Shown piece by piece: positions 11,255-14,200 of a stretch of DNA of 64,000 nucleotides. The notes beneath the pieces are model-generated. The model worked only from the letters and a program-made list of their open reading frames with translations, did not search any database and was not told the DNA's origin. Position 1 is the stretch's first letter, and every line of letters starts with the position of its first letter. The position numbers and the translations under genes were made by a program. This DNA is from an uncultured Gammaproteobacteria bacterium (GTDB taxonomy: Bacteria > Patescibacteriota > Microgenomatia > Levybacterales > GWA1-39-11): NCBI GenBank assembly GCA_964425075.1, contig CAYRKM010000001.1, positions 180,031 through 244,030 of the forward strand, read 5' to 3'.

Positions 11255-14200
11255 GCACTATTTCCCGACCTATTAGTACGACTAAGCTGAACACATTACT
11301 ATGCTTACACTTGTCGCCTATCAACCTCGTGGTCTACAAGGGGTCTAAGAAATCTTATCTTGAGGTGGGCTTCCCACTTAGATGCTTTCAGCGGTTATCC
11401 CGTGGAAATCTAGCTACCCGGCGCTGCCCATACTATGGTACAACCGGCACACCAGGGATTTCCTCACCCCAGTCCTCTCGTACTAGGGGCAACTCCTCTC
11501 AAATTTCAAAACGGTTATCCTGGATAGAGACCGAGCTGTCTTACGACGCTCTGAACCCAGCTCGCGTACCCTTTTAACTGGCGAACAGCCAGACGCTTGG
11601 AAGCTTCTCCACCTCCGCGCTAGGATGAGCCGACATCGCTGTCTCAAATCCTCACAAATATTGTGAGACGATGATTAAATTCCTCTGTTACCAGAGGGCT
11701 TGACTATACCTTCACCTCACTCTTTTTCCTTTCAATCATGTGATAATTTAAACTTCAGTTCCACCTGAAATAATGTTTAAACTTTTTTTCACACCTGAAA
11801 GGGTGAGGGCTAGCCGTATTATATGCGTGATTAATATTGCATATCCTCCGTCAAATGACGGAAAGTCGATACAAGAAAGAAGTTAAAAGTTTAAAGTTAG
11901 AAATTCAAAGTTATGAATATATCTATTATAATTTTGCACTTTGCACTTTGCATTTTGAACTTACCTCCTCTCGGTATTGTCCTAAAGTGTTCATTTTTAG
12001 GAGTCCACCGATTTGAGCTAGTATTTTATTCAACAAAAAGACCTATCAATCTTTAATTCGAAGAATCAGGCTTAAACTTTACAGTTTAGGCGCCCCGATT
12101 TATGTTCAAGGTGCCAAACCGCCCCGTCGCTGTGGACGCTTGGGAGCGATCAGCCTGTTATCCCCGGGGTAGCTTTTATCCGATAAGCTACGTGCATACC
12201 ACTATGCAGCGCAGGATCACTTTGACCTACTTTCGTACCTGCTCGACATGTACGTCTCGCAGTCAAGCTGGCTTATCCCAATATAGATTCAGCGCGATTT
12301 CCATCCGCGCTAAGCCAACCTTTGTACACCTCCGTTGCCATTTAGGAGGCGACCTCCCCAGTCAAACTGCCCACCAGACAATGTTCTCCTCCCGTGTTTT
12401 TATGCGGGTTAGAAGTAATGCTCATCTCTTCCAAAGAGAGGTATTTCATTTTCGCGCAAGCGCTCCCTCCTATTCTAAACAGTTAGAAAAAACTTACAAA
12501 TGCCAAGTTGCAGTAAAGCTCCCGGGGTCTTCTTGTCCAAGGACAACCAGGCCGCGTCTTCACAGCCATCTCAATTTCGCCGTGTATGTGTTCAAGACAG
12601 TTATTCGGTCATTCTACCATTCGTGCGGGTCGGAACTCACCCGACAAGGAACTTCGCTACCATAGAACAGTTATAGTTACTGCTGCCGTTCACCGGAGCT
12701 TAAATCCTAGACTTATACCTTGCGGTACTTCATCCGAGATTTTTGACTTACCGGCACTGGGCAGGTGTCAGCCCCTATACCTTACCTTTCGGTTTTGCAG
12801 GGACCTGTGTTTTAGATAAACAGTTGCCAAATACTCTTTTGCTGTGGCCCCGTATCTCTACGAGGCAGGGCATCTCCCAAAGGTTACGCCCAGATTTTTT
12901 GCCGAGTTCCTTGAACACACTTCTCACGATCGCCTTAGTCTACTCGACCAGCCCACCTGTGTCGGTAATGCGGTACGGCTAAATATTGCTCTCCTTACGA
13001 ATCTTTTCTCGTAGATTGAAAGATAACACTTATAGTACTTCTTGCGTTTCCTATTTGTCATCATCACTCAGTTAAAACGTCAAAGCGGATTTTCCTACTC
13101 AAACTGCTTCGTGATTTAAACCCCGCGTACGAGGCTGTCTCTTCCATTCCAGTCAATCCTTAAGTAATAACGATCAATAAATAGTAGTCGAATTTTAACG
13201 ACTCGTCCATCCGGCTACCCCGCGCTTAAACGACGGGCCACCGTTAGGTGCCGACTAACCCTTCGCTGACTTACATTGCGAAGGAATCCTTGGGCTTTTG
13301 GCGTGCACCGTTCTCAGGTGCAATACGCTACTCATGCCGGCATTCTCACTTGTATATACTCCACCAAACCTTACAGTTCAGCTTCAAAGCGTATACAACG
13401 CTCCCCTACCAACCCTTACGGGTTCTCTGTCTTCGGTATCATGCTTAATCCTCGATCATTTTCGGCGCCACTGTTCCAAATCGACTAGTGAGCTGTTACG
13501 CTTTCTTTAAAGGATGGCTGCTTCTAAGCCAACCTCCTAGCTGTCTGAGAACAATGACTTCCTTAACAACTTAGCATGAATTTAGAGACCTTAGACGAAA
13601 GTCTGGGTTGTTTCCCTTTCGAACCACGAGCTTAGCCCCGCAGTTCTGACTGTCTGTAAACACTACACTGGTATTCGGAGTTTGATTGAATTGGATAGGT
13701 TTCCCCACCCAGATCCATTCAGTGCTCTACCCCCAGCAAGCTTTTAACAGACGCTATACCTAGATATATTTCGGGGAGAACCAGCTATCTCCAGGTTCGT
13801 TTGGCATATGGCCCCTAACCACAAGTCATCCCATACCATTGCAACGGTAACGGGTTCGGTCCTCCCTTCTAGCTTTCGCAGAAGTTCAACCTGCTCATGG
13901 TTAGCTCACCTGGTTTCGGGTCTAATCCACACTCCTAACGCCCGGTTAGGGCTCGCTTTCACTACGCCTTCCCAAAACTTACTTTGGTTAGACTTGGAAT
14001 ATGAATTAACTCACCGGCTCATTCTTCAATAGGCACGACGTCATCCCGTTACAATTTCGGCAAAAACACATGTAACTCTACAATCAAGTTCAAACTGTAT
14101 TCTTGTAAAAATTGTAACGGGACTTCGTCTGCTTGTTAGCTAATAGTTTCAGGTACTATTTCATTCCCCTCCCGGGGTACTTTTCACCTTTCCCTCACGG

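Follow-up and report, generated by a model that had tools for sequence, protein, structure and literature searches.

What interrupts the peptidyl-transferase ring of a bacterial 23S ribosomal RNA (rRNA) gene, and what becomes of the interruption in the transcript? The question is raised by a 64-kb stretch of contig CAYRKM010000001.1 (the window hereafter), in which the 23S rRNA gene is 3480 nt long, compared with 2925 nt for the Rfam model. We found here that 470 nt of this gene, at 11639-12108 on the minus strand, form a group I intron that carries no open reading frame (ORF) and belongs to a family sharing one insertion site. Judging from the conservation of its parts, the intron very probably splices by the standard two-step, guanosine-initiated pathway and so restores the 2494-2507 peptidyl-transferase strand (E. 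coli numbering).

Boundaries, guide sequence and ribozyme core

Read along the minus strand, the gene follows the bacterial 23S consensus up to GGUUUGGCACCU and regains it at CGAUGUCGGCUCAUCC after a 470-nt departure, in the order ...GGUUUGGCACCU / UGAACAUAAAUCGGGG ...(470 nt)... UUUGAGACAG / CGAUGUCGGCUCAUCC, where slashes mark the splice junctions. The upstream exon ends in GGCACCT, which corresponds to positions 2494-2500 in an E. coli 23S gene and thus places the insertion between U2500 and C2501, i.e. at site L2500. The G+C content of the insert is 34%, against about 50% in the flanking rRNA. An original prediction, made from the letters of the window, had described an AT-rich insert of this length and position, collinearity with E. 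coli through GGCACCT followed by departure and resumption, an upstream exon ending in U and an insert ending in G. We recover every one of these observations on the minus strand, and since Rfam places the 23S gene on that strand, the sequence strings of the prediction are the reverse complement of the plus strand of the window. The features of the gene and intron are listed below with the evidence for each, intron positions being counted from 12108 downwards.

11253-14732, minus strand: 23S rRNA gene, the host gene (Rfam RF02541, 2188 bits, full length)
11639-12108, minus strand: group I intron, 470 nt, no ORF (sequence, Rfam, alignment fold)
12109-12115, minus strand: last bases of the 5' exon, GGCACCU (E. 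coli 2494-2500), which supply the 5' strand of P1 and close with the splice-site U (sequence, E. coli numbering)
12089-12099, minus strand: internal guide AUCG-GGGCGCC, intron 10-20 (sequence; AU(C/U)GGGG(C/U)GCC is nearly invariant in the family)
12073-12088, minus strand: P2 hairpin UAAAC-UGUAAA-GUUUA (6 of 6 pairs compensatory)
12068-12071, minus strand: GCCU mimic of the 5' exon end, intron 38-41, just 3' of P2 (99% paired, one compensatory change)
12028-12066, minus strand: P2.1, a predicted two-part hairpin (single-sequence fold; covariation by eye, AAGAU/GUCUU, ACGCA/UGCGU and AUGCA/UGCAU)
12016-12021, minus strand: P3 5' strand CUAGCU, intron 88-93 (RNAalifold long-range pairing)
12006-12011, minus strand: P4 5' strand UCGGUG, intron 98-103 (6 bp with 133-138)
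11980-12002, minus strand: P5 hairpin, intron 107-129, with a conserved GAACA loop (compensatory changes)
11971-11976, minus strand: P4 3' strand UACCGA, intron 133-138 (P4 is invariant except for G.U/G-C at one pair)
11873-11970, minus strand: P6, intron 139-236, with an A+U-rich hairpin of about 84 nt (base covaries; fold)
11864-11872, minus strand: J6/7 and P7 5' strand GUAUCGACU, with U240, bulged C241 and G242-U245 (invariant in 28 of 28; pairs with A404-A408)
11845-11863, minus strand: P7.1 hairpin, intron 246-264 (5 of 5 pairs compensatory)
11821-11844, minus strand: P7.2 hairpin, intron 265-288 (7 of 8 pairs compensatory)
11810-11815, minus strand: P3 3' strand GGCUAG, intron 294-299 (RNAalifold, covariation)
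11715-11808, minus strand: P8, intron 301-394, with an A+U-rich hairpin of about 87 nt (base covaries, 5 of 6 pairs compensatory; fold z = -4.5)
11701-11714, minus strand: J8/7 UGAAGGUAU and P7 3' strand AGUCA, the classical 'S' element (Rfam alignment to AAGAUAUAGUC)
11682-11697, minus strand: P9 hairpin, intron 412-427, with a GUAA tetraloop (4 of 6 pairs compensatory)
11650-11668, minus strand: P9.1, a predicted hairpin, intron 441-459 (fold; a variable hairpin stands at the same place in relatives)
11639, minus strand: terminal G (omega-G), G470 (sequence; G in 28 of 28 aligned, and required by the search pattern)
11635-11638, minus strand: first bases of the 3' exon, CGAU (E. coli 2501-2504), pairing in P10 with intron A10-G13 (sequence)

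The guide pairs with both exons. Its GGGCGCC segment (intron 14-20) forms P1 with the exon end GGCACCU (U-1.G14, C-G, C-G, A.C, C-G, G-C, G-C), which is extended by three intron-side pairs (U1.G13, G2-C12 and A3-U11), and its AUCG segment (intron 10-13) is complementary to the first four bases of the 3' exon, CGAU, to give P10. The P10 segment directly adjoins the P1 segment in the guide, and so the two helices abut, as exon ligation requires.

The core was examined in an alignment of the window intron with 27 relatives (28 sequences, with the long interiors of P5, P6 and P8 removed). Unguided, RNAalifold recovers P2, the long-range P3, P4, P5, P6, P7.1, P7.2, P8 and P9, and compensatory changes, in which at least one sequence has changed on both sides and kept the pair, occur at 37 of its 58 pairs. 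When P7 is added as a pseudoknot there are 63 pairs, 37 of them compensatory, and 94.7% of cells pair; if the 3' partners are slid by 1-3 columns as a control, the figure is 36-45%. The covariation score is 0.525, compared with about 0.1 when slid, and none of 500 shuffles reaches the observed values. All 70 positions that are invariant in the family are kept in the window copy. Applied to the P2.1 segment, MAFFT and RNAalifold gave no consensus.

P7 consists of five pairs (U240-A408, G242-C407, A243-U406, C244-G405 and U245-A404) with C241 bulged, and is invariant in the 28 sequences. The bulge and the G242-C407 pair make up the canonical guanosine-pocket arrangement, where the nucleophile is predicted to bind. 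A different 5' strand for P7, GGCUA (intron 294-298) pairing with UAGUC, was considered and rejected, because position 295 covaries with position 92: 11 sequences have C-G at this pair, 11 have U-A and six have U.G, while none has C-A. Since 88-93 and 294-299 form P3 in the RNAalifold structure, it is the invariant GACU at 242-245 that serves as P7. The search for a core that the original prediction proposed has therefore yielded P4-P6, P3 and P7, the last of the guanosine-binding type, and its group I reading is borne out by the geometry of guide, P1 and P10, by the terminal G and by a covariation-supported core from P3 to P9 with the P7 pseudoknot.

The same data bear on the fallback offered with that prediction, in which the insert would be an intervening sequence (IVS) excised by RNase III to leave the 23S rRNA fragmented. 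Such IVSs are also ORF-less extra sequence within a 23S gene, the insert is likewise A+U-rich with long hairpins, and fragmenting IVSs are known in bacterial 23S genes, according to the available text of PMC11270868. They differ, however, in site, structure and mechanism. The known sites given in that text are variable helices (23IS2 and 23IS4 in bacteria of the Candidate Phyla Radiation, CPR), not the universally conserved 2500/2501 position; the minimum-energy fold of the insert is a series of many local hairpins with no long end-to-end stem for RNase III; and the insert contains a complete covarying group I core, a guide sequence and a terminal G. Site, missing stem and ribozyme core together exclude the IVS, to which we give next to no credence.

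Based upon these elements, splicing of the group I intron would proceed as follows, although the order of the steps is inferred. In the precursor rRNA, GGGCGCC would pair with GGCACCU, leaving a U.G wobble at the splice site, and an exogenous guanosine bound at G242-C407 of P7 would attack after U2500. G470 would then take the place of the guanosine while AUCG at intron 10-13 holds the CGAU of the 3' exon. Exon ligation would restore the GGCACCU-CGAUGU strand of the peptidyl-transferase ring, and CGAUGUCGG is the 3' exon sequence expected to be joined to GGCACCU in spliced 23S rRNA. The extensions of the P6 and P8 loops (heptamer-repeat in P6, A+U-rich in P8) lie outside the catalytic core and should be tolerated.

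A second pairing of the guide complicates this scheme. The GCCU at intron 38-41 is complementary to guide positions G14-C17 (12092-12095) in the register of the 5' exon, U.G wobble included, and the resulting helix, which excludes P1, is present in 27 of the 28 sequences. It follows the guide change in L023 (C-G to U-A; handles of this form denote loci in our comparison set) and occurs in a shifted version in L043 and L078. In other L2500 intron families the guide can also pair with a downstream UGGC, but this is probably the P3 5' strand, and it was not counted as support for an exon mimic. The GCCU may be a switch that sequesters the guide after splicing, or alternatively a built-in circularisation site; either role, if true, would prevent a fresh attack by the excised intron on the peptidyl-transferase strand of 23S rRNA.

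At curated thresholds Rfam reports only rRNA and tRNA. With permissive filters and a 751-nt region, RF00028 (Intron_gpI) matches 11681-11869 on the minus strand (31.9 bits, E = 3e-6) and aligns GAAGGUAUAGUC with the J8/7-P7 consensus AAGAUAUAGUC; no group II intron model matches in the window or in the 751-nt region. The Rfam check suggested in the original prediction thus returns a group I match, but one that falls short of the curated gathering score of 50, and leaves the group II models unmatched. Taken as a structure, the RF00028 alignment was rejected, as it puts P7.1 on the first hairpin of the model and skips 114 model positions up to P8. Since P4-P6 are thereby lost, it is a pointer rather than a usable structure. 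The E-values for the window intron and for two of its relatives (L088 and L017) lie between 1e-6 and 1e-8 despite sub-gathering scores.

Several observations weigh against the conclusion that the intron splices, and most of them could equally be cited for a group I intron that no longer does so and is either retained in mature 23S rRNA, as reported for Simkania, or confined to a dead rRNA copy. The RF00028 score lies below the gathering score, and P1 contains an A.C mismatch. The guide can pair with the internal GCCU in competition with P1, and about 170 nt of A+U-rich peripheral hairpins in P6 and P8 could slow folding. A group I intron in the 23S gene of the bacterium Simkania is called 'unspliced' in the title of reference 28 of PMC11270868. 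TATAGTC and G-CGATG were demanded by our search pattern, and the invariance of P7, the S element and the terminal G is in part a consequence; these elements accordingly give no covariation evidence. Finally, splicing is here inferred from conservation alone. On the other side, L088 and L017, which are without long insertions, also score below 50 (38 and 35.8 bits), which indicates that RF00028 fits this intron family poorly. Rather than a private defect, the A.C mismatch is what most often occurs in the family, members whose guide reads GGGUGCC having A-U instead. All family-invariant core nucleotides are intact and all helices paired in the window copy, the rest of the 23S gene is full-length and high-scoring and is followed by a 5S gene, and the compensatory changes seen in 28 lineages point to a fold that is still under selection. 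In addition, 470 nt retained in the peptidyl-transferase ring would be hard to tolerate. We therefore regard loss of splicing as improbable and retain the splicing group I intron as the explanation of the insert.

No ORF of any length was found to suggest mobility: the longest in the insert, on both strands, has 59 amino acids, and none is homing-endonuclease-like. When three LAGLIDADG_2 proteins from L2500 introns were used as tblastn queries, the best match in the intron had E = 0.34 and nothing was found in the whole window. A remnant of an endonuclease gene was considered and rejected, given that the tblastn matches are noise and the P6 insert is a symmetric repeat hairpin. The claim of the original prediction that a homing-endonuclease ORF is missing is thus correct, and without such a gene the intron would now be immobile and vertically inherited.

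Relatives at the same site and intron class

A scan of one genome per species for TATAGTC, a gap of 45-75 nt and then GCGATGTCGGCT (that is, an S element at a suitable distance from a G/CGAUG 3' junction) matched at least 119 loci. At about half of these, including loci in Mesorhizobium, Paenibacillus and Sphingobium, the upstream exon is absent; they appear to be chance matches outside rRNA and were not counted. At least about 50 loci have an insertion bounded by ...GGCACCT and G/CGATGTC, at the identical nucleotide as in the window, and their hosts are overwhelmingly metagenome-assembled genomes (MAGs) of the CPR (Levy(i)bacteria, Saccharibacteria, Paceibacteria, Gottesmanbacteria, Falkowbacteria and others). 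At least 29 introns from the genome collection and eight from metagenomes share all conserved segments with the window intron, and among the matches listed this family comes mostly from Levyibacteriota. The closest relatives, again among the matches listed, are L041 (Levyibacteriota, 506 nt), L088 (319 nt) and L028 (346 nt). A metagenome scan for closer relatives, with or without the insertions of the window intron, gave nine contigs, none of them closer.

The recurrence of the family also bears on two other origins for the insert, an error of assembly or a mobile element of a different kind, for example a group II intron, an insertion sequence or a miniature inverted-repeat transposable element (MITE). 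Two observations could speak for such an origin: the window probably derives from a metagenome assembly, and the composition of the insert differs from that of its flanks. More than 35 independent assemblies nevertheless have this family inserted at exactly the same nucleotide. Rfam gives no group II match, there is no transposase or terminal inverted repeat, and the 64 kb contain no further copy of the insert sequences. An artefact or an element of a different type is, on this evidence, scarcely believable, and the group I intron remains the reading that we carry forward.

The 23S exons of the window are 91.5-91.8% identical to those of L041, L088 and L028, the upper figure being that for the Levyibacteriota MAG with the closest intron among the matches listed, which indicates that the host is a Levyibacteriota-like CPR bacterium. 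Within this small clade, similarity between introns and similarity between hosts run together. Ten of the loci (L028, L030, L034, L044, L048, L060, L073, L082, L088 and L096) are third-party-annotation MAGs in ENA, several of which are titled 'uncultured Gammaproteobacteria', and in the 23S gene L088 and L028 each share about 92% identity with the window. Judged by their sequences, these titles look wrong for the intron hosts.

Other insertions at this site do encode proteins. At least 11 same-site insertions are 800-910 nt long and each encodes a protein of about 200 amino acids; the one such protein tested, from L008, belongs to the LAGLIDADG_2 endonucleases (PF03161, E = 2e-42) and has I-SceI as a relative. 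L008 is the one ORF-bearing member of the family of the window intron and has the endonuclease gene in P6, in the loop that in the window intron is taken up by the repeat hairpin. Related ORFs of about 200 amino acids occur in the L2500 introns of L001, L008, L019, L047, L053, L061, L065, L093, L098 and L101, at differing positions within introns whose 5' architectures are visibly different. Such a distribution would fit a transfer of endonuclease genes from one ribozyme scaffold to another at a single target site.

Subgroup IA is defined by two extra helices, P7.1 and P7.2 (or P7.1a), that follow P7 and precede the P3 3' strand (PMC3984707). The window intron has two such hairpins, at intron 246-264 and 265-288, with 12 of their 13 pairs compensatory, and is therefore IA-like at a level at which IA1, IA2 and IA3 are left unsplit. 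It also has a short P5, a P2 and a predicted P2.1. The two extra hairpins, the short P5 and the P2 are shared with the IA-type introns of phage Twort, T4 td (IA2) and the cyanobacterial 23S site L2593, which differ in insertion site and host (PMC1995217). In the crystal structure of the Twort intron, P7.1 and P7.2 wrap the guanosine pocket (PMC1995217).

The original prediction held that the insertion falls at a recognised rRNA intron position, and this is so: GISSD holds 22 organellar introns at site 2500, from green-algal mitochondrial and plastid large-subunit rRNA (PMC3873408). They share with the window intron the insertion point 2500/2501, and many carry LAGLIDADG genes although some are ORF-less; in contrast, all are reported to be of class IB4 and to have any ORF downstream of P9.1, before the 3' end (PMC3873408). 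Organellar introns that lack a P2 typically fall into a set of subclasses that includes IB4 (PMC1995217). Compared with IB4 by description, the window intron has P2, the predicted P2.1, P7.1 and P7.2, and the ORF of L008 lies in P6. The L2500 site is thus common to the CPR and to organelles, with a ribozyme architecture that, from the sequences and by description, differs (IA-like as opposed to IB4).

That rRNA introns are frequent in candidate-phyla bacteria, as the original prediction stated, agrees with the CPR rRNA survey of Tsurumaki et al., 2024 (PMC11270868). In the available text of that survey, 45% of 23S insertions match the Rfam group I model, and the sites with introns, 23IS6-14, are grouped round the peptidyl-transferase centre. 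A single site can have both ORF-less and LAGLIDADG versions, which resemble each other closely once the ORF is set aside, and five intron sites were previously unreported in other bacteria; its introduction states that CPR rRNA insertions are removed from transcripts. By the same text, the window intron resembles these introns in host group, gene, position in domain V, the occurrence of ORF-less and LAGLIDADG forms, and detection by Rfam at relaxed thresholds only. The survey differs in that it defines classes by Rfam match and ORF content, and its available text, in which repeats and hairpins go unmentioned, contains neither secondary structures nor a subgroup assignment nor E. coli coordinates by which one of its sites 23IS9-14 could be equated with L2500. 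CPR introns round the peptidyl-transferase centre are therefore already published, and the window intron is a further ORF-less example, made somewhat more interesting by its IA-like architecture at L2500, its heptamer hairpins and its exon-mimic helix. Group I introns in CPR 23S rRNA genes are said to have been treated also by Brown et al. in 2015.

Loop extensions and heptamer repeats

Compared with the 319-nt intron of L088, that of the window carries two insertions, of about 84 nt in P6 (intron 148-236, 22% G+C) and about 87 nt in P8 (intron 306-392, 31% G+C). Both fold as continuations of their helices, and in the close relatives P8 is about 20 nt. The original prediction had noted low-complexity repeats in the insert. 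These are present: Tandem Repeats Finder places TTTGCAC repeats at 11933-11962 (4.3 copies of period 7), their partner array lies at 11880-11913, and the two can now be described more precisely as the arms of a hairpin that extends P6. On the RNA strand the arms read GCAAAGU three times and as a complementary AACUUUn series, and their 7-nt periodicity is far above that of shuffles (lag-7 autocorrelation z = 5.7 and 3.8). L041 has the same P6 repeat hairpin; a 7-nt periodicity is not seen in the P8 insertion of the window intron. No second copy of the P6 or P8 insert occurs in the 64-kb window, and a dispersed repeat or MITE was rejected as their origin because each is single-copy there.

Hairpins of 70-150 nt with 7-nt periodic arms are also found in L5, L6 or L8 (the loops of P5, P6 and P8) of ten other members of the family, and their heptamers are quite different. 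Carriers include L023, L030, L034, L041, L068, L082, L118, L125 and L126, with the repeat hairpin in P5, P6 or P8. Averaged over 34 arms, the autocorrelation z is 2.6 for lag 7 and 1.8 for lag 14, and the folds consist of runs of about 4 bp split by small symmetric internal loops.

Similar sequences lie outside the intron. Heptamer-repeat hairpins occur in the window at 14971-15041, in the spacer between tRNA-Ala and 23S, and in intergenic DNA at 57118-57216, with single period-7 arrays at 19284-19300 and 24586-24619. Across loci L001-L128, which are mostly rRNA-operon neighbourhoods, the density of period-7 arrays is 24-31 per 100 kb in CPR loci compared with 3.8 in non-CPR loci, and about half to two-thirds of those in CPR loci form close pairs, as against none in non-CPR loci.

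A search of the literature, so far as it is searchable, found no link between heptamer repeats and the CPR. The nearest parallel is the tRNA-Leu intron of Nostoc, in which degenerate 7-nt repeats on both arms of a hairpin lengthen P6 (P6b) and vary in length between relatives. That intron is of class IC3, in a tRNA gene and in another phylum; in the present material, hairpins of this type are also seen in the L5 and L8 loops of relatives and in spacers outside introns. Heptamers of the short tandemly repeated repetitive (STRR) class were reportedly described by Vioque in 1997 inside cyanobacterial RNase P RNA genes. One could read the hairpins as a self-expanding or mobile palindromic element that is CPR-wide and undescribed in searchable papers, and combine this with a role for GCCU as guide switch or circularisation site, but we consider this joint reading doubtful. 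Such an element could lodge in the terminal loops of structured RNAs (intron L5, L6 and L8, and rRNA spacers) and in intergenic DNA, and the CPR hairpins could have converged on the STRR heptamers of heterocystous cyanobacteria.

The surrounding locus and meaning of the intron

In the Rfam annotation of the window, the 5S rRNA gene lies downstream of the 23S gene at 10890-10998 and a tRNA-Ala(UGC) gene upstream at 15097-15170, so that the locus at 10890-15170 reads tRNA-Ala(UGC), 23S, 5S on the minus strand. It is flanked on both sides by ordinary chromosomal genes (for an acyltransferase, a Crp-like regulator, a formyltransferase and a thioredoxin-reductase-like protein). Rfam finds no 16S rRNA gene in the 64 kb, and the 16S gene is thus unlinked from 23S-5S. 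The 23S gene has a second insertion on the minus strand, 65 nt of A+U-rich sequence (about 14054-14118) that falls within a variable helix, close to Rfam model position 583; it folds as a hairpin (z = -2.1) and may be a counterpart of the short non-intron insertions or RNase III-type IVS sites of CPR 23S genes. An ORF of 187 amino acids at 12102-12665 on the plus strand, antisense to 23S rRNA, starts in the intron boundary region; it is almost certainly spurious and a likely source of a false gene call. Further away, a 58-nt tandem repeat at 61055-61193 (2.4 copies, 85% matches) overlaps the 3' part of a tRNA-Met gene (61154-61228, minus strand) and may reflect partial tRNA duplications or an integration scar.

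For annotation, 11639-12108 should be excised from the 23S gene, as otherwise 470 foreign bases enter the peptidyl-transferase ring in rRNA alignments, probe design and ribosome modelling. Because the family lies below the curated RF00028 threshold, threshold-based surveys miss it and under-count CPR rRNA introns; the family comprises about 37 sequences rich in covariation, and the present alignment could be the starting point for a subgroup-specific model. The intron leaves current ideas about its class as they were. What the L2500 site does offer is one position that is occupied by different ribozymes and associated with I-SceI-like LAGLIDADG_2 endonucleases, a pattern consistent with endonuclease genes and ribozymes moving independently.

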